NCBI GenBank assembly: GCA_018819405.1
Contig: JAHJQF010000001.1
Span: forward strand, 371,277 to 435,276
Direction of reading: 5' to 3'
Origin: Patescibacteria group bacterium
GTDB taxonomy: Bacteria > Patescibacteriota > Patescibacteriia > UBA1558 > GWA2-36-10
DNA length: 64,000 bases
The position numbers and the translations under genes are program-made. The first letter of the stretch is position 1. Each line of letters opens with the position of its first letter. Below the pieces are notes generated by a model. The model worked only from the letters and a program-made list of their open reading frames with translations. It was not told the DNA's origin and made no database searches. Positions 6,289 through 42,592 of this stretch are shown here, in pieces.

Positions 6289-8019
6289 ATGGCTTCACAT
6301 TTACCAATAACTCAGGAGGAACTAAAAAAAATACTTCTTGACGCCAAAGTAATCAAAGAAGATGACTGGGCAGAGGCTGACGATAATGCTCACCGTAGAA
6401 GAAGAGGAGTAGAAGAAGTGCTTATTGAGCGCGGTTTTGTCAATGCCAGATATTTGTATGAATTGGTGGGAGATTTTTTGAAAGTGCCTTATGTGAATTT
6501 GAGAAAAAGAAAACTTGACCCGGAAGTTTTGAAAATTATAGATGAAAAAACCGCTAGATCAGCCAAAGCAATTCCTTTTAATTTGGAAAAAGATGTTTTA
6601 AAGGTAGCCTTTGTTGATCCTAGAGAAAAAGCAGTGATTTCGGCGGTAAAATCAATGAGTAAGAAAAAAGTTGAGCCATATCTGACTAGCTACAAGAATT
6701 TTTTGTTTGCTTCTAGGCTGTATCAAAAAGATATTCAAGATGAATTAAACAAAATATTGGATGAAAAGATACTCAAAGTAGACGGTCGCCCAGCAGAAGT
6801 GGAAATCCCAATTATCAAGATTATAGATATAATTTTAGAAGCAGCTCTTTTTGAGCAAGCCTCAGATATACACGTAGAAGCCTTACCAGATGCCGTGGTA
6901 GTTCGTTTTAGGGTAGATGGTCATTTGCATGACATGGTAGAATTGCCAGCCTCAGTGCACGATGCCTTAGTGGCTCGTATCAAGATATTGTCTAATCTTC
7001 GTATTGATGAACATCGCGTGCCGCAAGATGGTCGTTTTTCTTTTAAAATAGAAGATGAAGAGGAGTCAGTCAGAGTATCGGTAATTCCGGCTTTTTATGG
7101 GGAAAAAATAGTCATGAGGCTTATGACTGATGAGGCTCAAAATTTGAGTATGGAAGATTTGGGATTTTTGGAACACAATGTAGAAGTGATGAAACGGCAG
7201 ATTAAAAAGCCTTTTGGCATGATATTGGTTGTTGGACCAACAGGATCTGGCAAAACAACTACTCTGTACTCAGTTTTAAATATTTTGAATACCGAAGAAG
7301 TAAATATTTGTACCATTGAGGATCCGATTGAATATGGAGTACATCGGGTCAATCAAACTCAGGTAAATCCCAAGGCCGGTTATGATTTTGCCAATGGTTT
7401 GAGGGCGCTACTTAGACAAGATCCTGATATTATCATGATTGGAGAAATCAGAGACAACGAAACAGCTCAGATTTCCGTCCGGGCGGGTTTGACAGGTCAT
7501 TTGGTATTATCAACCCTCCATACCAATAATGCAGCTGGTGCACCGCCTAGGCTTTTGGATATGGGAGTAGAACCATTTCTGGCCGCTTCCACCCTTAATG
7601 TAGTTATTGCTCAGAGATTGGTAAGAAGAATTTGTCTAAATTGTATAGAAAGTTTTCATCTTAAGAGTGATCAGCTAAAGAGTCTGAGTAGAGAGTTTAA
7701 TTTAGATGAAATGTTAAAGCGTTTCAAAGAATTTAAATTGGTAGAAGATAAAATAGAATCTTTTTCCAAATTGACTTTCTATAAAGGTAAGGGCTGCTCT
7801 AGGTGTAATGGCTCTGGTTATGATAAGCGTATTGCGGTGCTTGAGCTTTTGGAAAATAATTCAAAGATACAGGACGCAATTATTAAAAATTCTTCATCAG
7901 GTGATATAGAGAGGATAGCCAAAGAAAGTGGTATGGTCACCATTTTTGAAGATGGTATGCAAAAGGCGCTTTTGGGCATGACCACCATTGAAGAGGTGCT
8001 CAGAATTAAAAGAGAATAA
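6289..8019 (+). CDS. pilB: Type IV pilus assembly ATPase PilB (GspE family)
   Basis: T2SSE N-domain, Walker A GPTGSGKTTT, Asp/His boxes, C-terminal CxxC...CxxC zinc motif (CLNC...CSRC). Confidence 0.9.
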   Translation: MASHLPITQEELKKILLDAKVIKEDDWAEADDNAHRRRRGVEEVLIERGFVNARYLYELVGDFLKVPYVNLRKRKLDPEVLKIIDEKTARSAKAIPFNLEKDVLKVAFVDPREKAVISAVKSMSKKKVEPYLTSYKNFLFASRLYQKDIQDELNKILDEKILKVDGRPAEVEIPIIKIIDIILEAALFEQASDIHVEALPDAVVVRFRVDGHLHDMVELPASVHDALVARIKILSNLRIDEHRVPQDGRFSFKIEDEEESVRVSVIPAFYGEKIVMRLMTDEAQNLSMEDLGFLEHNVEVMKRQIKKPFGMILVVGPTGSGKTTTLYSVLNILNTEEVNICTIEDPIEYGVHRVNQTQVNPKAGYDFANGLRALLRQDPDIIMIGEIRDNETAQISVRAGLTGHLVLSTLHTNNAAGAPPRLLDMGVEPFLAASTLNVVIAQRLVRRICLNCIESFHLKSDQLKSLSREFNLDEMLKRFKEFKLVEDKIESFSKLTFYKGKGCSRCNGSGYDKRIAVLELLENNSKIQDAIIKNSSSGDIERIAKESGMVTIFEDGMQKALLGMTTIEEVLRIKRE

Positions 8020-8022
8020 AAT

Positions 8023-9264
8023 ATGGAATATATTAATAATCAAAATGATAAAATTTCTGAAACCAGAGTCTCTGTAGATAATCTAAGGAAAGACGGGGAG
8101 CTTACTAAAGTAAGTCCGCAGATGACTTCTTTTAAGTTGTATACCAAAAAACCTACTTCTAAAACTGCAAAGAAAGAGGATAAAGAAATAACCCCGATTC
8201 ATAAAAAGGGATTTATTTTAGGTAGAGTGAGTCTGACTGACAAGATGCTTTTTATGGATAATATGTCTACTATGTTGAGGGCTGGTTTGGCTCTAGCTCC
8301 AGCTCTTAGGACGCTAAAACAAGAAATAAAAAATAAATATTTTAGGGATATTTTGGATTATCTTGAGCGCCATGTAGAAAATGGTCAGCCACTTTCTAAA
8401 GGTATGAAATATTATCCCAAGATTTTTCCGGAAATGATAATCGCCACAGTAGAAGTAGGAGAGAGTACTGGTATGTTGGCGGATTCTTTTGGCAATTTGG
8501 CTGATATTCTAAAAAGACAAAAGGAGCTACAAGGCAAGGTAATTAGTGCTGTCATGTATCCGTCCATTGTCATGTTGGCGCTTATTGCAGTATCAATATT
8601 TTTGGCTTTAGTTATTTTTCCTCAGCTAGTTGGTCTTTTTCAATCGGCCAATGTAGAATTGCCTTTTGTCTTGAGGGCAGTACAGGCGATAAATGGTTTT
8701 ATTAGAAATTATACTTGGCATACTTTGGGTGGCTTGGTTATTTTTGGAGTGGCTATGAGATTTATATTTAAATTTCCAAAACCAAAATTTTTCCTTCACA
8801 GCATGATGCTCAAGATACCTTTTATTGGTAAGATAATCAGAGAGTTGTCGCTCACTAGATGGGCTGGAAATTTACAAGCTTTATTGGGAGCAGGATTGGC
8901 TATTGTAAATTCTATGAAAATATCAGCCCAGACACTTGGTAATATTAGATTTAAAAATGCAGTGTTAGAGATGTCTGATGAATTGGAAAAAGGCACTTCT
9001 CTAGAAAAAGCCATGCTTAAAAGGCCTGATTTATTTCCATCCTTATCGACTCAATTGTGTCAGGTAGGCGAGACCACTGGTGAGCTGGAGGAAATCCTAG
9101 GCAAAATTTCCAAATTTTATGAAGATAGAGTCAACAACATTTTGAGTAATTTATCTACTATTTTAGAGCCAATTTTGTTGGTGGTAGTAGGTGTAGTGGT
9201 CGGATTTATTGCGGTATCAGTCATTGGTCCGATGTATGAACTCACTCTTAGCTTTGCCGAATAA
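8023..9264 (+). CDS. pilC: Type IV pilus platform protein PilC (GspF family)
   Basis: Two GspF repeats and polytopic membrane profile, immediately downstream of pilB. Confidence 0.88.
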   Translation: MEYINNQNDKISETRVSVDNLRKDGELTKVSPQMTSFKLYTKKPTSKTAKKEDKEITPIHKKGFILGRVSLTDKMLFMDNMSTMLRAGLALAPALRTLKQEIKNKYFRDILDYLERHVENGQPLSKGMKYYPKIFPEMIIATVEVGESTGMLADSFGNLADILKRQKELQGKVISAVMYPSIVMLALIAVSIFLALVIFPQLVGLFQSANVELPFVLRAVQAINGFIRNYTWHTLGGLVIFGVAMRFIFKFPKPKFFLHSMMLKIPFIGKIIRELSLTRWAGNLQALLGAGLAIVNSMKISAQTLGNIRFKNAVLEMSDELEKGTSLEKAMLKRPDLFPSLSTQLCQVGETTGELEEILGKISKFYEDRVNNILSNLSTILEPILLVVVGVVVGFIAVSVIGPMYELTLSFAE

Positions 9265-9272
9265 TATAAATT

Positions 9273-9749
9273 ATGTTTAAAAAATATCAAGGAGGATTTT
9301 CAATAATAGAAGTTATCATGGTTTTGGGTTTGGTTGGTTTGGTAGTTGGTTTTGGAGCATCTGGTTATCAGGTTTGGCAAAAAAATATTCATCTCAATAA
9401 TGTCAGGGATGAAATAAAAAGTAGTCTATTTAGGGCACAACAGTTGGCTACAGCTGCCGCCAAGAGCAATCCTTGGGGAGTCCATTTGGAAGTTGATAGC
9501 TATACAATATTTAAAGGAAACTTTTATAACGAAGACGATCCGGATAATATGAGCTGGCAGTTGGAGGGCGTAGAAATTCTAGAACCATATAGAAGTTTTG
9601 ATGATGGGGCAGGGAGCACTACGGCGGATGTTTTATTTGGTAAGTTTGATGGTCAGACTATTAATACTGGCATAATATCTCTTTCTCCTATTGCTGATCC
9701 AGCTTTGATAAAAACTATTGAGGTGGAAGCACCAGGGCAAATAAATTGA
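9273..9749 (+). CDS. Type IV pilin-like protein (class III prepilin signal)
   Basis: N-terminus QGGFSIIEVIMVLGLVGLVV matches the prepilin peptidase motif G/FxxxE followed by a hydrophobic helix. Confidence 0.7.
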   Translation: MFKKYQGGFSIIEVIMVLGLVGLVVGFGASGYQVWQKNIHLNNVRDEIKSSLFRAQQLATAAAKSNPWGVHLEVDSYTIFKGNFYNEDDPDNMSWQLEGVEILEPYRSFDDGAGSTTADVLFGKFDGQTINTGIISLSPIADPALIKTIEVEAPGQIN

Positions 9750-11656
9750 TTATGTTTGATTATAAAAAAACAGAAGGTTTTTCTTTGATGGAATTATTGG
9801 TCGTCATATCTTTTGTCAGTGTGATGGTTTTTTTGATTTTGGGTGTCAGCAATTCAAATAATAAAGTAAAAAAATTAAATGAAGAAACAACCCAAGCTAT
9901 GTTTTATGCCTCTGAAGCTCTGGAAGCAGTCAAACTGATGGCGTGGGATGATATTAGTACTGGACAATATTCTGTAGAGTTGACTGGAGACAGTTGGACA
10001 CTATCTTCTGGTAGCCAGCTTTTGGACGGGTTTTATACTAGGCAGATTGAAGTCAGTGATGTATATAGAGCTAATATTTCTAATGGTCATAGTTATGGAG
10101 AAATAGTAAGTAGTGGAGGTTATCTTGACCCTGATACAAAAAAAGCTCAAGTGATAGTTGTTTGGGATAGTAAATCTGGCCATCAGGAAACGCAGACTCT
10201 AGAAACATATTTGCATCGTTTCAAAGCTGATCGTTGGCACCAGACAGACTGGGTAGGTGGAGATGGCCAGGAGCTGTGGAGTGATGAAACTAAGTTTTCT
10301 TTTAAAGATTCAGGTATTGATAATTCAATACCGGGTATTGTTACTTTAAAGGCCGGATTTATAGATTGGAGCTATGCCAATACTACCTCTACTTATGATA
10401 CACCGGGAAATTTTGATGATAATGATGTATATGAAATAAATGATATAGCCTATTTGGTGACAGAAAATAATAGTTATGGCAGTGAATTTTATATTTTAGA
10501 TGTCAGTGATATTTCTAGTCCCACTTTGATTTCATCTATGGATATTGGCGCAGCAGTAAAGTCAGTTTTTGTGCAAGATAATTATGCTTATATTGCTACT
10601 GATTCCAACTATCGTGAATTCCAAGTAATAGATGTGTCTAACCCAAGTAGCCCATTTATTGCAGATTATTATGATATGAGCGGAAATAGTAATGCTCTGG
10701 ATGTCATGGTAGATGAAAGCAAAGCCTATGTTGTCCAGGGAGATTATCTATACTCTTTTGACATTACTGATCCCACTGATATTCGATATCTTGATAGAAT
10801 AAGCGTAGATGATCAGGCTAGAGAATTATTTTTATCAGAAAGCTATGTTTATATAGCAACTGAAGATGACAATAAGGAGCTTCAAATAATGGATGTGACT
10901 AATCCAGCTAATTTGTCAGCTGTTGGTCAATATGACTTGCCAGGTTCTTTGAAAGGAACGGACGTAAATGTCAGGGGTAGCAGAGCTTTTATTTCCACTC
11001 AAAACAATGGTTCTGGGGCGGAGTTTTTTGTAATTGATGTGACTAATCCAGCTAACCCCAGTCTTTTGGGAAGTTACGCCGTTGATGAAACCATACATTC
11101 ATTTGCTATAGTCGGTCCATATGCTTTGGTGGGCACAAACTTTTTAGATCAAGAATTAGTGGTCTTAGATATCAGCTTTCCCGAAACTATAAATGAAATT
11201 TCCGGTTTTGATTTGAATGGCTATGTTTTGGGTATGAGTGCCAATTGTTCTGTCATATACGCGGCAACATCTGGAAATACTGGTGAATTTTTTATTATAT
11301 CTACCGATGTATTAGACTGTGAGTATGCAGATTATGGTACTATGGATTCTTCCACTTTTGATACTGGTAGCAACCAAGTAACCTACAATTGGATTGCCTG
11401 GACAGGCACTGAACCAAGTGGTACTGATATTCGTTTTCAGTTGGCTACTTCAGACAATGAAGCAGGCCCATGGAATTTTATCGGACCAGACGGTAGTAGC
11501 TCAAGTTATTATACAAATTCTATTCAAGAATACATAAATTATAGTGCCCATCAGGATGATAGATATATCAGATATAGATTATTTTTGGATAGTGATTCGG
11601 AGTGGCAAGTGCCTGTGGTAGAGGAGGTATTTATTAGTTATTCTACTTATCCATGA
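9746..11656 (+). CDS. Large pilin-like protein with LVIVD-repeat beta-propeller domain (putative pilus tip/adhesin subunit)
   Basis: Prepilin N-terminus EGFSLMELLVVISF. At least 5 tandem LVIVD-type repeats (YAYIATDSNYREFQVIDVSNPSSP, AYVVQGDYLYSFDITDPTDI, VYIATEDDNKELQIMDVTNPANL, AFISTQNNGSGAEFFVIDVTNPANPSL, ...). Confidence 0.65.
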   Translation: MIMFDYKKTEGFSLMELLVVISFVSVMVFLILGVSNSNNKVKKLNEETTQAMFYASEALEAVKLMAWDDISTGQYSVELTGDSWTLSSGSQLLDGFYTRQIEVSDVYRANISNGHSYGEIVSSGGYLDPDTKKAQVIVVWDSKSGHQETQTLETYLHRFKADRWHQTDWVGGDGQELWSDETKFSFKDSGIDNSIPGIVTLKAGFIDWSYANTTSTYDTPGNFDDNDVYEINDIAYLVTENNSYGSEFYILDVSDISSPTLISSMDIGAAVKSVFVQDNYAYIATDSNYREFQVIDVSNPSSPFIADYYDMSGNSNALDVMVDESKAYVVQGDYLYSFDITDPTDIRYLDRISVDDQARELFLSESYVYIATEDDNKELQIMDVTNPANLSAVGQYDLPGSLKGTDVNVRGSRAFISTQNNGSGAEFFVIDVTNPANPSLLGSYAVDETIHSFAIVGPYALVGTNFLDQELVVLDISFPETINEISGFDLNGYVLGMSANCSVIYAATSGNTGEFFIISTDVLDCEYADYGTMDSSTFDTGSNQVTYNWIAWTGTEPSGTDIRFQLATSDNEAGPWNFIGPDGSSSSYYTNSIQEYINYSAHQDDRYIRYRLFLDSDSEWQVPVVEEVFISYSTYP

Positions 11657-12201
11657 TTTTGAAAAATAACAAAATAAAAAAAGATCAAAAAGGTTTTACT
11701 TTTATAGAAACTTTACTTTATATTTTTATTTCCAGCATGCTTATTTTGATAATAAGCAGTATGGTAATGAGTATTTTCAATATCAAAAGGCAGTTTCAGG
11801 CATCATATTTAGTTCATAACAATGCCCGTTTTATTACCAATTTTTTGATGAATAGGATTCATAATGTAGACAGTATCCAAGATGCTAGTCCACTGCCTGA
11901 GGGATTTCATTTTTATGAATGGCCGGATATTCGTTTTAGTATAGATGCCGAGGGAAATGATTTGGTATACAGAGAGACGCATGATGTGGGAGCTGGTTTT
12001 CCTGATCAATCTACAGCCACGGCGATGGTTTTAAACTCAAATAAAGTAATAGTCAGCGATCTAACGCTGACGCCTATTTCCGATGCCTATGGGCAAGCAA
12101 ATCAGGGTATAAATATTACCTTTACTTTGACCACGGGCAATAGTAGTTATAGACATGGCTATTTGCAGAAAACTTTTAATACCTTTATAAGTATCCGTTG
12201 A
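11653..12201 (+). CDS. Minor pilin-like protein (prepilin N-terminus)
   Basis: N-terminus KGFTFIETLLYIFISSMLILII. Overlaps the previous gene by 4 nt (operon). Confidence 0.6.
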   Translation: MILKNNKIKKDQKGFTFIETLLYIFISSMLILIISSMVMSIFNIKRQFQASYLVHNNARFITNFLMNRIHNVDSIQDASPLPEGFHFYEWPDIRFSIDAEGNDLVYRETHDVGAGFPDQSTATAMVLNSNKVIVSDLTLTPISDAYGQANQGINITFTLTTGNSSYRHGYLQKTFNTFISIR

Positions 12202-13151
12202 TGAACAATAAAATAAAATCACAAAATGGGGCAGTGGCTTTGATAGCCACTCTGGTAGTAGCGACTGGTATGTTTTCGGTAGTTTTGTCAATTTTATTTA
12301 TTTCTATAAACACTAGGGAGAGCTTGATATCTTTTGTGGATTCTATGCAGGATTTTTATGCTGCCGAATCGGGAGTAGGAGAGGCAATGATGCAACTTAG
12401 AAAAGAGCATACTAATTTTGATTTTCGTAGTATAAATGTAGGGGGTATTGTAGCTTCTAGTGAGTTTTTTGATATGCCTGGAGAATGTATGCCGATTCCG
12501 GAGTGTCAATTTACACCAGGGTCAGGTTGGTGGGCTGAATATTTTAATTATTCTGTCACTCATCCTGATATGGAGGTCAATCCTTATCCCGGGCCAACTC
12601 CTAGTCCACTTGATCATGATTGGTATTGGGATATTTATAAAACACACGAGCAGGTTGATGCCAATATTGATTTTCTGACCAGTATGTGGTTTCCCTATGA
12701 TGGGACTATTTACGAAAACAAAGAGGGGTTTTTGCATGATTACCATTTTGGTATGCACTGGCGAGCAAAGGTGACAGCACCAGCTGATAGTGATTATAGA
12801 TACTATTTAGCATCAGACGACGATTCTTGGGTTTTATTGGATGATATAGTAATAGTAAATAATAGTGGCACTCACGCTGCTAATATAAAAACAGGCACTA
12901 TATTTTTATCAGCCGGCGATAGTATAGTAGACATATATTTTGCTGAACGCCACACCGTAGAATCAGGCTTTAGTTTTTATTTTGAGGATACCAATTTGGT
13001 TATTACTCCTTGGCCAGAAGGTTGTGGTGATGATTTGACTTGTAATTCTCATATAGAGTCGACTGCTTCTACTACCAAAGCCACCAGAAAAGTAAGATAT
13101 ACTTGTAACCAGGATATTTCCAACTGTAATTGGAGTGAACTAGTGCCATAG
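12198..13151 (+). CDS. PilX_N-like pilus protein carrying a PA14-like carbohydrate-binding domain
   Basis: N-terminus QNGAVALIATLVVATGMFSVVLSILF resembles the PilX N-domain. The C-terminal half matches the PA14 pattern (GWWAEYF...MHWRAKVTAPADSDYRYYLASDDDSWVLLDDIVIVNNSGTH...IFLSAGDSIVDIYFAE). Confidence 0.55.
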   Translation: MMNNKIKSQNGAVALIATLVVATGMFSVVLSILFISINTRESLISFVDSMQDFYAAESGVGEAMMQLRKEHTNFDFRSINVGGIVASSEFFDMPGECMPIPECQFTPGSGWWAEYFNYSVTHPDMEVNPYPGPTPSPLDHDWYWDIYKTHEQVDANIDFLTSMWFPYDGTIYENKEGFLHDYHFGMHWRAKVTAPADSDYRYYLASDDDSWVLLDDIVIVNNSGTHAANIKTGTIFLSAGDSIVDIYFAERHTVESGFSFYFEDTNLVITPWPEGCGDDLTCNSHIESTASTTKATRKVRYTCNQDISNCNWSELVP

Positions 13152-13155
13152 GTGT

Positions 13156-13164
13156 GCTATAATA
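13156..13164 (+). promoter_or_regulatory. Extended -10 promoter element (TGcTATAAT) upstream of the ClpB-D1-like gene
   Basis: tgctataat lies 28 nt upstream of the ATG at 13192. Confidence 0.35.
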
Positions 13165-13191: not shown

Positions 13192-14130
13192 ATGGAAGTA
13201 TTTGATAAATATTTATTTTATAATATAATCCTGCTGATTTTAGTGGGTGTTTATTTATTAAAGAGTAATCAGGACAAAAAATATGGTCAGTCAAATTTTT
13301 TTGGTAAGACCAAAATTTTTCAGCCAGTCATAGAAAAATTTACAACCAATCTCACTCAGCTTGCTATAGAAAGCAAAATTGATCCGGTAGTGGGCAGGGA
13401 CCATGAGATAAAAAGACTGATTCAAATATTATCACGACGAAAAAAAAATAATGTTATTTTGTATGGCAAAGCCGGTATTGGTAAAACAGCCATTGTAGAA
13501 GGTTTGGCTATGGCCATTTCTCAAGCTAGGGTTCCGCAGTCTCTTTTGGGTAAGACAGTTCTTAAATTGGATATATCATCAGTTTTGGCGGGCACAAAAT
13601 ATAGAGGTGAGTTTGAAGACCGTTTCAAGGCTTTGATTGATGCCATTATAAGTTTGGAAAAACAGGTAATAGTTTTTATTGATGAGATTCATACTATAGT
13701 TCAAGCCGGTGGCGTGGAAGGAGCTATTGACGCTGACGATATTATAAAATCTCCTTTGGCACGTGGCGATCTGCAGATGGTAGGAACTACTACCACCAAA
13801 GAGTTTAAAGAATTTATTTTAAAAGACGCCGCTTTGACTAGACGTTTTGAAGCAATTTTAGTAGAAGAGCCTAGTGCTGAAAAAACTATTTCTATGCTCA
13901 AGGCACTGCGTAAAGATTATGAGGATTATCACAATGTTATTATCAGCGATAAAATAATAGAAAATATAGTTTCTTATTCGGCTAAAATAAAAAACAGAGT
14001 TTTTCCTGACAAGGCTATTGATATAATGGATGAAGTATCGGCCAAGGCAAGACTTGATCATGTTGACAATAACAAAACCATCACAATCACAAATAAAGAC
14101 CTTAGCGATGTTTTAAAAGATTTTAAATAA
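13192..14130 (+). CDS. Membrane-anchored AAA+ protein: N-terminal TM helix fused to a single ClpA/ClpB/ClpC-type first nucleotide-binding domain (D1), lacking the M-domain and D2
   Basis: Collinear with ClpB D1 (LAIESKIDPVVGRDHEIKRLIQILSRRKKNNVILYGKAGIGKTAIVEGLA...VIVFIDEIHTIV...ARGDLQMVGTTT...DAALTRRFE...DKAIDIMDE) and then terminates. Hydrophobic N-terminus. Confidence 0.7.
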   Translation: MEVFDKYLFYNIILLILVGVYLLKSNQDKKYGQSNFFGKTKIFQPVIEKFTTNLTQLAIESKIDPVVGRDHEIKRLIQILSRRKKNNVILYGKAGIGKTAIVEGLAMAISQARVPQSLLGKTVLKLDISSVLAGTKYRGEFEDRFKALIDAIISLEKQVIVFIDEIHTIVQAGGVEGAIDADDIIKSPLARGDLQMVGTTTTKEFKEFILKDAALTRRFEAILVEEPSAEKTISMLKALRKDYEDYHNVIISDKIIENIVSYSAKIKNRVFPDKAIDIMDEVSAKARLDHVDNNKTITITNKDLSDVLKDFK

Positions 14131-14139
14131 AGTTATATT

Positions 14140-14328
14140 ATGAGTGAAGTAAAAATAATTCAGGCCATTTCTATAAAAACCAAAACACTGTTGGCAGTCA
14201 TGATGCTTTTGTCGGTTTTTAGTATGGCTTTTTTGGTCGCTCTTATAGCCAGGGGTATGAGTGCTCTTGGGCAACAAATAGCCAGTCACGATATTGGTAT
14301 GGAAACACAAAATTATCTTAAAAAATAA
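14140..14328 (+). CDS. Small single-TM protein, hypothetical
   Basis: 62-aa ORF with one hydrophobic helix, 10 nt downstream of the AAA+ gene. Confidence 0.3.
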   Translation: MSEVKIIQAISIKTKTLLAVMMLLSVFSMAFLVALIARGMSALGQQIASHDIGMETQNYLKK

Positions 14329-14463
14329 TAAAAAATAAGACTCTGGCAGGGTTCTTTTTTTATTTACCCTGTTAAATTTTTTTTTAATGGGGTTTGACAA
14401 AAATATTTAAAAAGCAAATAATTAATAGTAATTAGGAGGAATAATAATTTAAAGTATAAATGT

Positions 14464-15273: not shown

Positions 15274-15311
15274 ACCTGCGGCGCGCTTTGGCGCGCCGCA
15301 GGTTTTGTTTT
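15274..15311. terminator. Bidirectional rho-independent terminator
   Basis: acctgcggcgcgc / gcgcgccgcaggt perfect 13-bp stem with tttg loop, flanked by A-run and T-run; separates convergent genes. Confidence 0.8.
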
Positions 15312-16374
15312 ACAGGCTATCGAGAATCTCGGTCAGCTTTTCAGCGATGACCGTAGCTACTGAGACATTTTCCACCAGACCGCCAGTCTGGTTTTCGTAA
15401 GAACGATGGATAGTGTCTCCAGCCAGGACTCGGGTGAAAGGACTGGTCCTTTTGCGACCAACCCTTCTTTTCCAGGGGGGCGAACACTTCATGTGGGTGG
15501 CGACCAGCTCTACCTGGAAAGCCTCGGCTCGCAACAGGTCGCGGCAGGTGTCAGCGGCAGTACCACCGGTATCGAGCTCATCTTCCCGCATGATGATGTA
15601 GGCGTCCTTGACGGTTTCCGAGTTGATGAGTTGGATTTCAACTCCATATTCCTGGCTTATCTTTTCGATGAAAGTCAGGTCTTGCGGTGTGGGTTCAACA
15701 TTGGTGACAATGTTGCCGGTTTCTTTGCGCTTTTTCAAGCTCAGGAGCACCGGTACGTCCAGTGACTTAGCAATGGCTACTGCCCTCAAGAGTGAACCTT
15801 TGTCCGGGGACAGAATCTTGAATTCTTTGTCGAGTTCCTTGGCCTTGGTCAGGCTGGACTTGAGAGCCGCTATGTACAACGGTGTAGGTTTGACGTGGTA
15901 GGTCTCCAGGCCGACTTGCTGGCAGTTGAGCATTGTTCTTTCGGAATGGATGTCGCAGACAAGCATACGGTCTGCTCCGTTGGCCTTGATGTTCTCCATG
16001 AACCAGAGGTTGAGGTCAAATTCTTCGGGGATCTCCGGATGATCCTGTCGTCGAAAAGCCATAAAGGGCTGAACAACGGTCAGACTCTTGGCGCCGTACT
16101 TTTTCTTGATCGCTCGGATGAGGATCAAAAGCTCCAAGACTAGGTGTGGTTTGTGGGTGCTCAGAAAGAGTACTGCGTGCTTGCCGGCGATGTCTTCCCA
16201 GCGGTCAAAACAGAAGTCAGGCTCACTGTCCGGCCACCAACCGAAATCGGTGTGGGACAGGCTGAGTGGTACTTATTTGATCCGGCGTATATTGACAGCG
16301 TCAATGATTTTTTGGGCCAGGTGGTTGGTGTCTCCGCGTCCGCAGAGCATCAGGATTTCTTCGGAGTGTGCCAT
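15310..16374 (-). pseudogene. prs: Ribose-phosphate pyrophosphokinase (PRPP synthetase, Prs family)-like gene interrupted by one in-frame TAA (minus-strand codon at 16275..16273), in a ~55% GC island
   Basis: Prs-collinear translation: MAHSEEILMLCGRGDTNHLAQKIIDAV...(TAA)...FLSTHKPHLVLELLILIRAIKKKYGAKSLTVVQPFMAFRRQD...DELDTGGTAADTC. Strong SD gggagg 5 nt before the ATG. GC content far above flanks. Confidence 0.55.
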
Positions 16375-16505
16375 TTTTGCCTCCCTGTTCATGTAAAGGA
16401 CTAGTGAAGTCCGTGTGTTGGCTTCATTACTTGCGCCTTTATATAAAACTAAATCAGACCTTTTGTCAATTTTTTATTTTTTCAAATAAATGATATAATT
16501 TTATT

Positions 16506-16940
16506 ATGAGACTTTGGAGTATACACCCTAGCTATTTGGATACCAAGGGTCTTTTGGCTCTTTGGCGCGAAAGCCTTTTAGCCAAAAAAGTTTTAAAAGG
16601 TCAAACTAAAGGGTATACAAAACATCCACAATTAGAACGCTTTAAACAAAGTGATGACCCTTTAAATCTCATCAATCATTATCTCAATTTTATTTGGCAG
16701 GAGGCGAATATTCGTGGTTACAATTTTGATCAGTCAAAAATAGAGAATTTTATCCCGACAAAAAAATTACCGGTTACCAGAGGGCAGATTATTTATGAGT
16801 TAGATCATCTAACTCATAAACTAAAAATTAGATCACCTCATTTTATCCGAGTTTTACCTCATCCAAATAAGGCTCAGACACATCCAATATTTTATGTTGT
16901 AGAGGGAGATATTGAAGCCTGGGAAAAATTATCTTTTTAG
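16506..16940 (+). CDS. Pyrimidine dimer DNA glycosylase-like protein (Pyr_excise / T4 endonuclease V-like family), tentative
   Basis: N-terminus MRLWSIHPSYLDTKGLLALWRESLLAKKVLKGQTKGYTKHPQLERF matches the conserved start of this family, from memory. Extended -10 tgatataat upstream. Confidence 0.5.
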   Translation: MRLWSIHPSYLDTKGLLALWRESLLAKKVLKGQTKGYTKHPQLERFKQSDDPLNLINHYLNFIWQEANIRGYNFDQSKIENFIPTKKLPVTRGQIIYELDHLTHKLKIRSPHFIRVLPHPNKAQTHPIFYVVEGDIEAWEKLSF

Positions 16941-16980
16941 TATATAATACAAAAATTAATAATTAATAAATAGTATATAT

Positions 16981-17391
16981 ATGAAAACATATATTTTAGC
17001 GCCAATTTTGTTGGCTACAGTGCTTTTGACAGGTGGCTGTTTGAAAAAAAATCCTTTGGTCACAAATGATCAAACTTTTGTAAATCAAAACCAAGAGGAA
17101 AACATGGAAAATATAGAAGAAGACGGGCTGATGGCCACTCAATATGACATGGCAGAGATCGCCCAACATAATAATGCTGACGATTGTTGGCTCCTTATTA
17201 GTGGCAAGGTTTATGATGTGACCAGCTTTATCGCTGGTGGCAATCATGGCGGTGGTGATGCCATACTGGAAGGTTGTGGTATTGATGCTACTGAGCTTTA
17301 TGAAACTAGACCCATGGGATCTGGTACACCTCACTCTGATAAGGCTCGTGGATTTTTGGAGGGTTTTTATATAGGAGATTTTAGAGAATAA
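16981..17391 (+). CDS. Cytochrome b5-like heme/steroid-binding domain lipoprotein
   Basis: Lipobox LLTGGC. Cyt-b5 core DDCWLLISGKVYDVTSFIAGGNHGGG. Confidence 0.6.
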   Translation: MKTYILAPILLATVLLTGGCLKKNPLVTNDQTFVNQNQEENMENIEEDGLMATQYDMAEIAQHNNADDCWLLISGKVYDVTSFIAGGNHGGGDAILEGCGIDATELYETRPMGSGTPHSDKARGFLEGFYIGDFRE

Positions 17392-18661: not shown

Positions 18662-19465
18662 CTAAAGTCTTTTGAGGTAATTTTTTGCTGCTACTTTTGT
18701 TTCAAAATGCAGAGCTTTTTTTATATGGGTACTTTCAGCACCTTCAGATTTTAATCGGTGAGCCAAAGTGTTTCTTAGTATTTGGGGGTTGATAATTACT
18801 GGCGGATCAATACCTATGGCATATTTAGAAATCAGCCTTTCAATTGAGCGGACACTTAAATGCTCATTTTTACTTTTATTTGATCTATCAAAATTTATAA
18901 ATAAATATTGATTGTTATCTAGCCTTTGGTTTATGTATTTATCAAGATGAAACCAGGTTATAGGTTTTATAAGAATATGTTTTTTGGGATTGATAATAAT
19001 TTCTTTTTTTATTTGATCTATTTGATCAAGGCGCAACTGGCATAATTGTCCGACTTTTAATCCGCTGTAATATAAAATCTCTAATATTGCTTTATCACGC
19101 AGGGCTATCAATCCTTTTTTTGTCAGAGGTTTATCTAAAAATACCTGAAGTTGTTCATTATTTAATATTTTGATTGGCGCATCTTGATCAGAGAGAAGAT
19201 CAAATTGAAATCTTTTATTTAAAAATTTAAGATAGTTATTTACAATTTTTAGGCGTAGATTGACAGTATTTACTCTTTGATATTTTCTAGTTAAATATAT
19301 AAAATATAATTTAAGGTTTTTTTCGGTGATTTTTTCTTCCCCAAGCCAAACTAGGAATTTTTCCAAATTCCAAAGATAGCTTTTTATAGTACTAGGGGCT
19401 AAGGCGAGAGATTTTAAGTATTTTTTGTATTCATTTACCCCGTTAGAAATTTTAGTAGTCGACAT
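18662..19465 (-). CDS. Tyrosine site-specific recombinase (XerC/XerD / phage integrase family)
   Basis: N-terminal SAM-like core-binding region and C-terminal catalytic segment with R...HRL...Y (LRNTLAHRL...KNYLKRL). Confidence 0.75.
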   Translation of the reverse strand: MSTTKISNGVNEYKKYLKSLALAPSTIKSYLWNLEKFLVWLGEEKITEKNLKLYFIYLTRKYQRVNTVNLRLKIVNNYLKFLNKRFQFDLLSDQDAPIKILNNEQLQVFLDKPLTKKGLIALRDKAILEILYYSGLKVGQLCQLRLDQIDQIKKEIIINPKKHILIKPITWFHLDKYINQRLDNNQYLFINFDRSNKSKNEHLSVRSIERLISKYAIGIDPPVIINPQILRNTLAHRLKSEGAESTHIKKALHFETKVAAKNYLKRL

Positions 19466-39763: not shown

Positions 39764-39840
39764 TCGTCCTGTAGCTCAGCTGGTTAGAGCACCACTCTTA
39801 TAAAGTGGGGGTCCTGGGTTCAAGTCCCAGCAGGACGACC
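39764..39840 (+). tRNA. tRNA-Ile with anticodon UAU (reads AUA)
   Basis: Manual fold: acceptor cgtcctg/caggacg with one G-U, D-arm gctc/gagc, anticodon stem ccact/agtgg with loop cttataa (anticodon TAT), T-arm ctggg-ttcaagt-cccag, discriminator A, encoded CCA. Confidence 0.8.
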
Positions 39841-39898
39841 AGATTGACATTTTATCCACTATTTGCTATATTTCTATCGTTAAATTTATTATCAAGAT

Positions 39899-39988: not shown

Positions 39989-40167
39989 TTTTTACCTGTC
40001 TACGGTAGGTAGGTATTTATTCAATAAAGAACCGTTTTTGCCTAGCGCGATTATTGTGGCATTAGCGGTTTTTTGTTAGGTTTAAAAGATAAAAAATCGC
40101 GCCCCCTTTTTCCAACATAGGATTAAGGGGGCGTTAGTATAGGCTGACCGCCTATTGTGTTGTAGAC

Positions 40168-40461
40168 TCAGGCCACCTTGGCCAGAGTAGGGTAGGAGGA
40201 GATCCTAGCCAAACCAGGGTCTTCAAACTGGACAGCAAAGTAGGAATCGGACATCCCGACCAGCCGGCCTTGTCTGATACCAGAAAGCCAGTAGATCCAG
40301 CGTATATCACCACGCTTGACGACCACGAAAGTGCGGCGTCCTTTGTGGATGATGGCCTTGCGTCCGGTTAGGGAATTGGTCAAGGTCAGGTCTCGGTGTA
40401 GGATAGCCGTTACGCGAGGCAGTTCCGGTAGGAGTTCTTGGAGTTTTTCCAGAGTAGACAT
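40168..40461 (-). CDS. Small basic protein, candidate RelE/ParE-like toxin partner
   Basis: 97 aa from internal ATG 40461 (MSTLEKLQ...). Segment RRTFVVVKRGDIRWIYWLSGIRQ resembles RelE/ParE-fold toxins (weak). Confidence 0.35.
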   Translation of the reverse strand: MSTLEKLQELLPELPRVTAILHRDLTLTNSLTGRKAIIHKGRRTFVVVKRGDIRWIYWLSGIRQGRLVGMSDSYFAVQFEDPGLARISSYPTLAKVA

Positions 40462-40465
40462 GAGT

Positions 40466-40708
40466 TTAGCTCCCTTCAGGCAGGCGAAGCAGCCGATTGA
40501 AGATGCTGGGGTCTTCGACAAAGCTTCGAATTTCACCAATCTGGTCAAGGTCGTAGTTGAAGTAAAGGGTGTAGGAGCCAGCTGGCAAAATGATGATTTC
40601 TTGGACTTGTCCGGTTATAGGGTCGATGACTTCAACACTGGTGTTTGTGTCCAGGACAATGGTCTTGGGATCAGCGAGGATTGACTGAAATTTTTCGGCT
40701 TGAGTCAT
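40466..40708 (-). CDS. Small acidic protein, candidate antitoxin of a two-gene toxin-antitoxin-like module (GC-rich island)
   Basis: 80 aa, pI acidic. Stop separated by 4 nt from the downstream basic ORF; SD aagggag for the downstream gene lies in its 3' end. Confidence 0.35.
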   Translation of the reverse strand: MTQAEKFQSILADPKTIVLDTNTSVEVIDPITGQVQEIIILPAGSYTLYFNYDLDQIGEIRSFVEDPSIFNRLLRLPEGS

Positions 40709-40978
40709 GACATTTTCCTCCTAGTGAAAAGAACAGATTTGAGCATAAAAAAATATTCCTTTTCAGGAATATTTAATTCACTCTATATAAATATTTTTTT
40801 CTTTGACAAATTCAGAACTGAGAAAAAATAAAAGCCCTTTATCGGGGGTCATTTTCTGATGATGGGCATATCTTTTTTTCATCTTTATAATTATAGCAAA
40901 AATAAATATTTGGTCAACTAGTCTTAAAATAAAGGGAAAATTGAAGCCCCCACCAAGATGTCTGTCTATAGTGGGGGC

Positions 40979-41176
40979 TCAAGCTTGGCCGGGGCTTAGT
41001 GATCCGTTTTGGATCAATTGGAGGTGCTGTCTCAGTGCTTGTTCAACTTCTTGGGCCGTTTCTTTCCGGCAGTAGAGGCGAGCTACATCAATCGCCGCAT
41101 GTAGGGTTTTTTCATCGGGTAGGGAGTAAAAGTTTTGGATAGCCATGGCCATGAGTTTGGCGCCGTCTTCTTGCAT
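40979..41176 (-). CDS. 65-aa hypothetical protein with canonical SD and sigma70-like promoter
   Basis: SD ggaggtga 4 nt upstream of ATG. Promoter TTGACA (41266..41261) -17 nt- TATAAA (41243..41238) on minus strand. Confidence 0.4.
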   Translation of the reverse strand: MQEDGAKLMAMAIQNFYSLPDEKTLHAAIDVARLYCRKETAQEVEQALRQHLQLIQNGSLSPGQA

Positions 41177-41306
41177 GGTTTCACCTCCTTGAGGTTTCGA
41201 GTTAAGGACAGGGCGGAGAAAAATAGAGTAATATTTATTTATAATATTAATATTGGTATTTGTCAAGAAAAGGAAGGCCGCCCGACTAGAAGCCGGGCGG
41301 CTATGT

Positions 41307-41657
41307 TTAGGAAGCATTGACAGCCTCTTCGGCATCATTGTCTTCCGATACGTCCTCGGTAGGTGTGAGTTGTGGCAGCAACTCCAGGACCTTGAGAGGC
41401 ACGATGGAAACCCTGAGACCAGGGTAGTCTTTTTGGGTGGAGGCCCAAATCCAGCTGGTTATAGATTGGCCGACCATGCGACCTTGGTCAAGCTCTTTCT
41501 TGATGACCAAGAGGTCATGAGGAAAGATAGTAGGATCTCCTGGATTGGCTATCCTGACCAACTTGTAAGTACCAGCGGCGTAGACTATTGGTTTCCCCTG
41601 GATAAGAGGGCTTGGGAACAGGGTATCCTCCTCTGTGGAAAAGTCTATGAGGTTCAT
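41307..41657 (-). CDS. 116-aa hypothetical protein (strand choice uncertain in GC-rich DNA)
   Basis: Co-oriented with all other island genes and protein-like composition. The overlapping plus-strand ORF 41253..41687 is the alternative. Confidence 0.3.
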   Translation of the reverse strand: MNLIDFSTEEDTLFPSPLIQGKPIVYAAGTYKLVRIANPGDPTIFPHDLLVIKKELDQGRMVGQSITSWIWASTQKDYPGLRVSIVPLKVLELLPQLTPTEDVSEDNDAEEAVNAS

Positions 41658-41965
41658 CGGGTGATGAGCAACGAGGGTGAAGATTAAGTGCTTTGCGACG
41701 TTGCCTCCGTGCTAGAGAAGTGAGTGAGGTGCGAGTGGCGGGGGGATATATTTTTATTATACACAAAAAATAGGATAAGGGAAATTTTTATAATTTTTAT
41801 AAAAAGAAAGCCGCCCTGGAACGTTTGGCGTTCCAGGGCGGAGGGAAAAACAAGGTCAGCTAGCTTGTACGTATCTAGGACTTGTTTTCGAATTGGCTGG
41901 GGTTGAAATCAACAACCACTATCAGTCGTTGGGGGAGATGGCAGATTTAGTATAATAGTTCCTTT

Positions 41966-42592
41966 CTAGACAGGGTAATTACCTCTGAGTCGGAGCCACT
42001 CTTCACGACCTTTGGGGCGTATAGCTTCGGAGCCGGCCAGACACAAGGGACAGTCCTGAGGTTGCCAGGTGTCAATCTGGGGAGCGATCAAGCTGATGAT
42101 CTTACGACCATCCAGATCAGATAATCCCGATCGGTTGACCAGCGCTAGAATGGTATGGCTCACAATCCCGCCTGCTTCGCTTATACCGGCGATGCTCTGG
42201 CGGGTGGTTTTGCCAGTAGTCATGACATCTTCAACCATTAGTACCCTGGTGCCAGGCTTCAGTGGAAAGCGTTTGAGCAACATCTGGTTGTCAACCTTTT
42301 CGGTGAAGCCGGCTTCCTTCTCCATACTCAGAGCCAGTTGGTAGGCCAGAGTGACGCCGCCCATGGCTGAACCAATAACCATATCATATGGACAATTGTG
42401 TAGCCAGTTGGCCTGATTGGCCAGGTGCCAGCAAGCCTTTTCCAGTAGAGCAGGGTTGCGGATAATTAGGCTACAGTTGACAAAGCCGTTGGAGTGCAGT
42501 CCACTGGTCAAAAGAGCGTGGGGACGCTGAGGATTGTTGTCGTGGAGCCACAGGGCACCGGTTTGTTTGAAGACTTCCAGCCACATGAACAT
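41966..42592 (-). CDS. Orotate phosphoribosyltransferase-like PRTase (PyrE family), in GC-rich island
   Basis: PRPP loop VLMVEDVMTTGKTTRQSIAGISEAGG and DMVIGSAMGGVTLAYQLA segment are collinear with PyrE. Confidence 0.6.
   Translation of the reverse strand: MFMWLEVFKQTGALWLHDNNPQRPHALLTSGLHSNGFVNCSLIIRNPALLEKACWHLANQANWLHNCPYDMVIGSAMGGVTLAYQLALSMEKEAGFTEKVDNQMLLKRFPLKPGTRVLMVEDVMTTGKTTRQSIAGISEAGGIVSHTILALVNRSGLSDLDGRKIISLIAPQIDTWQPQDCPLCLAGSEAIRPKGREEWLRLRGNYPV

Follow-up and report, generated by a model that had tools for sequence, protein, structure and literature searches.

A two-gene locus for a membrane-anchored Hsp100-type ATPase and a small partner

Analysis of a 64,000-nucleotide stretch of the genome of a Patescibacteria group bacterium (GenBank assembly GCA_018819405.1, contig JAHJQF010000001.1, forward-strand positions 371,277 to 435,276; hereafter the window) reveals two adjacent genes that form a conserved two-gene module of the Patescibacteria, or Candidate Phyla Radiation (CPR). 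The first codes for a 312-residue ATPase with a transmembrane (TM) anchor, and the second for a 62-residue single-pass protein. The ATPase is a member of the AAA+ superfamily and belongs to the clade of the first nucleotide-binding domain (D1) of Clp/Hsp100 proteins, an assignment with which its Pfam matches, sequence motifs and fold all agree; it is identical to a database protein annotated as 'AAA family ATPase [Patescibacteria group bacterium]'. Both genes are present in the list of open reading frames (ORFs) as described in a first-pass annotation of this DNA, in which the 62-residue protein was listed but not recognized for what it is, a conserved partner of the ATPase. The features of the locus are given in Table 1.

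Residues 41–294 of the ATPase align with residues 157–411 of ClpC (PDB 6em8; E = 2e-75), and the PDB alignments match the same region to ClpB 152–394 and ClpA 169–425. Pfam recognizes AAA and AAA_lid_9 only, the latter at residues 228–307, and the NCBIfam models for ClpB, ClpA and ClpV match solely through D1, with 301–321 bits against cut-offs of 885–1232. The ClpB disaggregase equivalog (TIGR03346) thus scores 321 bits against a cut-off of 1232, with positions 155–400 of its 853 covered, the ClpA model 313 bits against 993, and the ClpV model 301 bits against 885. The protein stops after the lid and has no Pfam match to Peptidase_M41, so it does not qualify as an FtsH. A model of the ATPase built with AlphaFold2 (AF2) on 41 homologues (mean predicted local distance difference test score, pLDDT, 86; predicted template modeling score 0.77) has a helix at residues 2–27, a disordered segment at 28–43, and a compact D1 large and small domain at 44–312, with lid helices at 229–289 and 301–311. 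Foldseek superposes this model on the D1 domains of ClpC, ClpB and ClpA over about 268 columns with a root mean square deviation of 1.6–2.5 Å, and the KYRGEFE pore loop is identical to that of ClpC and ClpB D1 in the PDB alignment. The C-terminal ITNKDLSDVL aligns best with a segment behind the M-domain of CPR ClpB proteins (approximately residues 540–550), and in the model the C-terminal strand and helix complete the lid. The protein is therefore a whole D1 from which the M-domain is neatly absent and which ends at the junction with the second nucleotide-binding domain (D2), and it is not a random truncation. The description in the first-pass annotation, of a protein aligned with the D1 of ClpB, ClpA and ClpC, with a TM helix replacing the N-domain and with neither M-domain nor D2, is thus borne out by Pfam, the PDB alignments and AF2. 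The D1 arginine pair equivalent to R217 and R218 is reported to be required for oligomerization of ClpB and Hsp104 (PMC4239642).

Table 1. Features of the ATPase–partner locus (positions are those of the window).
Feature	Coordinates	Strand	Description	Basis
Extended -10-like element	13155..13163	+	TGcTATAAT; possible own promoter	Sequence match only
ATPase gene	13192..14130	+	312 aa, NCBI MBU1202795.1; TM-anchored D1-only Clp/Hsp100-type AAA+	
ATPase TM helix	13195..13272	+	Residues 2–27, hydrophobic core ~8–25	Kyte-Doolittle, AF2
Tether	13273..13320	+	Residues 28–43; disordered, K/S/N/G-rich; membrane to ATPase	pLDDT <50
Walker A	13465..13488	+	GKAGIGKT, residues 92–99	G92, G95, G97, K98, T99 invariant in 41 members
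Pore loop 1	13597..13617	+	KYRGEFE, residues 136–142, with substrate-gripping Y137	K136, Y137, R138, G139, E142 invariant
Walker B	13681..13686	+	D164-E165 within VFIDEIH	Invariant
Paired trans-acting arginines	13840..13845	+	R217-R218, RRF motif	Invariant
D1 small (lid) subdomain	13873..14127	+	Includes final strand and helix	AAA_lid_9, AF2, tail alignment
Partner gene	14140..14328	+	62 aa, single-pass, MBU1202796.1	ORF list, alignment with relatives' partners
Partner juxtamembrane motif	14170..14193	+	SIKTKTLL, residues 11–18; K/T-rich	Alignment with partners of ~12 lineages
Weak hairpin, then T-run	14347..14386	+	cagggt...accctg, 13-nt loop; may mark the end of the two-gene unit (tentative)	By eye

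The hydrophobicity of the ATPase peaks at its N-terminal helix (Kyte-Doolittle maximum 1.84), and across the family the net charge flanking this helix is -0.46 on the N-terminal and +2.24 on the C-terminal side, the C-terminal flank being the more positive in 97 of 108 members. This bias predicts an N-out/C-in topology, and therefore a cytoplasmic ATPase. The tether has a median length of 22 residues in the family.

The promoter-like element is located in the 40-nt gap between a PA14/PilX-like gene and the ATPase gene, as read from the sequence. The first-pass annotation had given the ATPase an extended -10 promoter of its own; the element is indeed there, as a match in sequence, but a consensus promoter scan does not list it, for want of a -35. 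A terminator scan finds no canonical terminator downstream of the partner gene. The G+C content of the window is low, about 0.36.

Conservation of the ATPase family

The arrangement of a TM helix followed by D1 alone is common among the Patescibacteria and is present in more than 100 of their protein clusters. The best 120 matches in a database of 5.8 billion proteins are nearly all 300–336 residues long with an N-terminal hydrophobic helix, most have the Walker A variant GKAGIGKT, and they come from Patescibacteria, Parcubacteria, Komeilibacteria and Buchananbacteria in assemblies made by many groups. In an alignment of 41 members extending down to 45% identity, Walker A, the pore loop, Walker B, T200-T201 and R217-R218 are invariant. 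The ratio of nonsynonymous to synonymous substitution (dN/dS) relative to close relatives is 0.05–0.07, which reflects strong purifying selection on the ATPase. A neighbor-joining tree of D1 cores separates the 41 TM-anchored proteins from 30 full-length ClpB and ClpC proteins (five of them CPR ClpB) in 100 of 100 bootstraps, which indicates one origin rather than repeated truncations; the tree is used unrooted, its midpoint root falling inside the family, one clade of which is fast-evolving. These observations support the suggestion in the first-pass annotation that the protein is a repurposed membrane-tethered unfoldase module. The annotation also asked whether TM-anchored, D1-only orthologues recur beside pilus genes in relatives: the orthologues do recur, but the pilus operon accompanies them only in the 88%-identical relative L208.

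Two further scans add to the family. A profile scan of genome contigs is swamped by full-length ClpB and ClpC, with L009, L010 and L036 being family members among the matches listed. A metagenome scan with the family-specific Walker A GKAGIGKTAIVEG returns mostly another, soluble D1-only family, the useful loci being L090, L101, L152 and L161. The L009 ATPase is 61% identical to that of the window and is encoded on a 14-kb contig (CAZHLU010000027.1) that has been assigned to 'uncultured Gammaproteobacteria'. The contig was probably placed in the wrong bin and stems from the CPR, so that it does not show the family to occur elsewhere.

The other D1-only Hsp100-like family looks unrelated to that of the window. 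Its members (within L089–L207, for example L097:4155-5144, L121, L160 and about 110 others) are 305–375 residues long, come from human-gut, rumen and sludge metagenomes, and are soluble, with an acidic N-terminus such as MEDIELYEVNEE. They share the Walker A of the window family, but their identity to the window protein is no more than about 35%, and they have neither the KYRGEFE tyrosine nor the PDKAID motif. From these sequence features, they may be a non-threading derivative of D1.

Single-pass partners with K/T-rich tails

The 62-residue partner consists of a cytosolic N-terminal tail, the SIKTKTLL motif, a TM helix and a short external tail. Comparison with its counterpart in L208 gives proportions of nonsynonymous and synonymous differences of 0.18 and 0.56, respectively, and a dN/dS of about 0.2, indicative of purifying selection. 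In every informative lineage (about 12), an immediate neighbor of the ATPase gene on the same strand codes for a protein that crosses the membrane once and whose K/T-rich N-terminal tail (hereafter a TK-tail; Table 2) runs straight into the TM helix. What follows the helix varies, from no ectodomain at all to an FG-GAP propeller, a papain-like protease, Big_7 or CarboxypepD_reg. The C-terminal domains, where present, are of types typical of extracellular proteins (FG-GAP, Peptidase_C1, PEGA, Big_7, CarboxypepD_reg) and the tails are K-rich, so an N-in/C-out topology is predicted; the tail would therefore be the sole part of the partner that a cytosolic ATPase can reach.

Table 2. TK-tail partners encoded beside the ATPase gene (downstream neighbors unless upstream is stated).
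Lineage	Tail	Length (aa)	Remarks
Window	AISIKTKTLL	62	
L208	ISVKTKTLL	63	
L001	VSIKTKTLL	62	
L090	SVKTKTFL	66	
L209	GIQTKALL	465	
L003	KKVKVLL	57	
L003, another	ATKTKVLV	1047	Papain-like protease, PEGA, FG-GAP
L210	STKTQVLL	233	
L009	STQTRVLL	510	FG-GAP
L036	KKTITKTKTKIKT	178	Cys-rich
L213	ELTTKKTKV...	212	
L214, three copies		106, 72 and 132	
L005	KKVKTQTKSRVATK	757	Upstream neighbor
L005, another	EVKTKVKNALGIKTK	553	CarboxypepD_reg; upstream ~3.2 kb, same operon
L007	TETKTQLKT	150	Big_7; upstream neighbor
L008, L161, L152	TTKTKTEAK, KKIKTKAETK, ...	42–46	Mini-proteins behind conserved 367–374 aa TM protein

The association was quantified with a simple rule, applied to ORFs with an N-terminal hydrophobic segment: the TM helix starts at or before residue 60, the 18 preceding residues contain at least six T or K, and there are at least three TK or KT dipeptides. 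Such tails are present in 9 of 49 ORFs near the ATPase gene (within 1.5 kb on the same strand) and in 1 of 327 elsewhere (odds ratio 73, p = 5e-8), and the single ORF away from the ATPase belongs to the same L005 operon. L213, added once the rule stood, conforms to it too. No other ORF in the 2.0 Mb of DNA examined matches a hidden Markov model of the close-clade partner module; the next matches are the L005 neighbors (E ~0.5–1). Large-database searches for partners, whether with a single sequence, by exhaustive phmmer or with a profile of 19 tails, find just 2–4 proteins, owing to the shortness and hydrophobicity of the module. A TK motif in the tether of the ATPase itself, considered as a pseudo-substrate, was dropped from consideration, being present in just 22 of 105 members.

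In a distant clade (L008:6964-8067, L152, L161 and L101) the ATPase gene is followed by one for a 367–374-residue protein with an N-terminal TM segment (INLYRNISxSF...) and no Pfam match, and the 42–46-residue TK-tail mini-protein comes after it in a three-gene arrangement.

Genomic context

Upstream of the ATPase gene in the window are genes for PilB (6289–8019) and PilC (8023–9264), three N_methyl/pilin-like genes, and a gene for a PA14 protein. Two of the products, both conserved in L208, would be large adhesin-type minor pilins: a 636-residue pilin-like protein with an LVIVD beta-propeller (9746–11656) and a 317-residue PilX-like protein with a PA14 domain (12198–13151). Among the approximately 15 neighborhoods examined, some of which are related to one another, this PilB-PilC-pilin-PA14 synteny is restricted to the window and L208 and is absent in about 12 other lineages. 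The upstream gene codes for a methyltransferase at 68–73% identity (L001, L209, L214), the upstream genes are those for PheS/PheT at 63–65% identity (L003, L210), and in other lineages they code for DNA polymerase III alpha, CorA/Big_7, RelA or DnaB. Since the upstream genes differ in this manner, the pilus association is a matter of local synteny and not a property of the family, and the proposal in the first-pass annotation that the ATPase is possibly pilus-associated is not supported.

No type VI secretion system (T6SS) genes are present in the neighborhoods examined, and the ATPase is not identified as a ClpV/TssH. PADLOC gives the ATPase only weak generic AAA matches (IetA and TRIP13, E ~1e-4 to 1e-6) and the partner none. 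Readings of the ATPase as a partner of ClpP, as the ClpV of a T6SS, or as part of a defense system were rejected or down-weighted on the grounds of family models, PADLOC and synteny.

Three other regions of the window stand out. Relative to the syntenic L208, there is extra DNA at 15310–17391 between the genes for a 262-residue protein and a 209-residue phosphoribosyltransferase. It contains a minus-strand gene similar to that for phosphoribosyl pyrophosphate synthetase with a partial N-domain (G+C content about 0.40, many overlapping ORFs), a pyrimidine-dimer glycosylase gene and a gene for a small TM/heme-like protein; a XerC/D-type integrase gene is close by at 18662–19465, and the segment may be an insertion. 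A tRNA-Ile gene with anticodon UAU (read as 'tat') is located at 39765–39841; this is an uncommon bacterial means of reading AUA, compared with lysidine-modified tRNA-Ile2(CAU). Finally, the G+C content has a local peak of 0.456 at 40001–42000 against about 0.36 in the window; ORFs on the two strands overlap here, and Rfam gives no match.

Possible roles of the module

The reading that we favor, and to which we give an even chance, is that the ATPase is a membrane-tethered, protease-less dislocase or remodeling motor dedicated to TK-tail proteins. The N-out/C-in helix and a flexible linker some 20 residues long would keep the D1 domain close to the membrane on its cytoplasmic side. By homology, six copies would form a ring, powered by ATP, in which the KYRG tyrosines thread polypeptide; that the pore-loop tyrosine, the Walker motifs and the arginine fingers are all intact speaks for a ring active in threading. 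In the structures of ClpA, ClpB and ClpC, substrate enters Hsp100 rings via the face that bears the N-domain. The pore mouth is thus predicted to face the bilayer, as it does in FtsH and Msp1/ATAD1, because it is at this entry face that the membrane anchor replaces the N-domain. The K/T-rich tail of the partner would be the handle engaged by the ring. While the domain architecture, conservation, intact catalytic and pore residues, topology signals and gene pairing are shown by the sequences, we infer that the ATPase forms hexamers, that the tail engages the pore, and that the biological outcome would be the extraction, remodeling or regulation of the co-encoded surface proteins, with no protease involved; mini-proteins such as the 62-residue partner would be minimal substrates or regulatory pseudo-substrates.

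There are several points that weigh against this interpretation. The tails are short, with about 14 residues before the TM helix of the window partner, which is near the minimum for reaching the pore, and to our knowledge isolated Hsp100 D1 domains are not recognized as efficient stand-alone motors. The conserved mini-proteins that have no ectodomain fit a role as subunit or regulator at least as well as that of substrate, and no protease is co-encoded that would account for the fate of an extracted protein. Moreover, the rule by which TK-tails were counted was devised after the first examples and some of the loci are not phylogenetically independent, and two loci are uninformative on the pairing: no mini-ORF was found in L101, and L211 lies at a contig end.

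Among the other explanations, it is extremely improbable that the ATPase is a decayed or split clpB or clpC, be it as a pseudogene, as a D1 half with a separate D2 half, or as a subunit mixing into full-length ClpB rings. The window D1 is about 50% identical to that of ClpB and ClpC, and the CPR lineages L013, L016, L020, L059 and L086 carry full-length ClpB. However, when three full-length CPR ClpB proteins and one Firmicute ClpC are used as tblastn queries, the sole match in the 64-kb window is D1 itself (13255–14058), with neither M-domain nor D2 likeness downstream in any frame (the best noise match has E = 9.5) and no second Hsp100 gene, and there is no D2-only gene in the approximately 15 neighborhoods. 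The first-pass annotation had named the discovery of an M-domain and D2 downstream in another frame as the mark of a broken gene; none is there, and its alternative of a decayed clpB remnant is contradicted as well by the recurrent architecture, the invariant motifs and the low dN/dS (0.05). The pseudogene version is refuted by the absence of remnants, purifying selection and the invariance of the motifs, and the monophyly of the family, with its conserved TM anchor and clean domain boundaries, speaks against the idea as a whole. A type IV pilus accessory, helping to assemble, retract or quality-control the pilins and minor pilins encoded upstream, is very unlikely. The ATPase gene is directly behind the PilB-PilC-minor pilin-PA14 genes in the window and L208, and in L005 a single N_methyl gene lies two genes before it, but the synteny is gone by about 70% identity and the ATPase gene has a promoter-like element of its own. 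Pilin-like genes are in any case frequent in CPR genomes, so occasional adjacency is to be expected.

The pairing with TK-tail proteins leads to two other explanations. In one, which we consider unlikely, the ATPase serves as a chaperone, tethered to the membrane, for targeting or unfolding: it would recognize the tails of the co-encoded surface proteins and keep these proteins unfolded for insertion by Sec/YidC and export of their large ectodomains. The ectodomains, where present, are large extracellular modules and the tail behaves like a common N-terminal tag, as this would require; nonetheless, partners without an ectodomain need no unfolding, a pore entry toward the membrane suits extraction over delivery, and Sec and YidC genes are linked to the pair in none of the loci examined. 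The other, the main rival and in our view a realistic though clearly lesser possibility, is that the TK-tail proteins associate stably with the ATPase through TM–TM contacts, as subunits, adaptors or regulators (compare LAP1/LULL1 with Torsin, and HflKC with FtsH). The clients of the ring would then be other proteins, as in general quality control of membrane proteins or in disaggregation at the membrane. Nearly all loci have the pairing, conservation of the partner lies in the tail and a small-residue-rich TM helix with the ectodomain dispensable, and mini-proteins of 42–72 residues are conserved and under purifying selection, all of which a subunit would explain. Yet L003, L005 and L214 carry two or three TK-tail proteins and the ectodomains are large and unrelated, so that the loci with multiple partners look more like clients sharing a tag than a fixed subunit, and the short tail is the only cytosolic part of the partner available for regulation.

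A bolder form of the motor interpretation, and one that we consider fairly unlikely, is a lineage-specific, genetically encoded tag-and-motor system of the CPR in which an alternating Thr/Lys N-terminal tail marks particular surface proteins for ATP-driven pulling by a dedicated membrane-tethered, single-ring Hsp100. The two-residue periodicity of the tail would match the grip of AAA+ pore loops on their substrate. The proteins so targeted would be proteases, propeller or adhesin-like proteins, and mini-proteins.

Relationship to known systems

The window ATPase is similar to the D1 of ClpB, ClpC and ClpA (45–53% identity) in its Walker A and B motifs, KYRGEFE pore loop, sensor-1 TT and RR fingers. 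It differs in lacking the N-domain, M-domain, D2 and ClpP-docking loop and in having a TM helix and tether instead, in its Walker A (GKAGIGKT rather than GEPGVGKT), and in belonging to a separate clade; because the M-domain is absent, no coupling to DnaK is expected. Msp1 is a membrane-anchored, single-ring AAA+ hexamer that threads and extracts single-pass proteins through its pore (PMC7018516, PMC12793716). Msp1/ATAD1 and the window ATPase have in common an N-terminal single TM anchor, one AAA+ module and no protease, and we infer a functional likeness from this architecture, although Msp1/ATAD1 is of the classical AAA clade, is eukaryotic, and acts on tail-anchored rather than N-terminally anchored substrates. 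FtsH is a bacterial membrane-anchored AAA+ ring with its pore entry toward the membrane that dislocates membrane proteins. In contrast to the window ATPase, whose AAA module is of the Clp D1 type, it spans the membrane with two helices and also carries a periplasmic domain and a fused zinc protease. Torsin is a single-module, Clp/Hsp100-related AAA+ protein with an N-terminal hydrophobic anchor that depends on the single-pass partners LAP1 and LULL1. Unlike the window ATPase, it is D2-like, is located in the lumen of the endoplasmic reticulum and has no aromatic pore loop, and LAP1 and LULL1 supply an arginine finger on a folded AAA-like domain where the window partner has, on the side of the ATPase, only its short K/T-rich tail. 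Skd3 (human CLPB) also has a single nucleotide-binding domain; however, the module that it keeps is of the D2 type and comes with ankyrin repeats, the protein is found in soluble form in the mitochondrial intermembrane space, and it lacks dedicated tail-tagged partners. It is reported to be active as a stand-alone machine (PMC7343390), an example of a single Hsp100 module that works alone.

We found no description in the literature of a TM-anchored, D1-only Hsp100 or of its pairing with TK-tail proteins, and there is no dedicated NCBIfam or Pfam model for the family, in agreement with the remark in the first-pass annotation that such proteins are not a described family. In the databases these proteins go under unspecific names ('AAA family ATPase' or 'ATP-dependent Clp protease ATP-binding subunit'), and the latter is misleading because the family is without the Clp features and forms a separate clade; the finding corrects a systematic mis-annotation.

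Class I Hsp100 proteins are two-ring soluble machines. If the proposed role is correct, the TM-anchored, D1-only family shows that D1 can work as a stand-alone motor, and bacteria gain a protease-free puller of membrane proteins, so far in the CPR/Patescibacteria. If the tag-and-motor interpretation is also correct, bacteria would have their own equivalent of Msp1, derived independently from the D1 of ClpB/ClpC, and episymbionts could use it when needed, and with no protease partner, to retract surface proteins, release them or turn them over. Remodeling of the cell surface is central to the episymbiotic lifestyle of the CPR.

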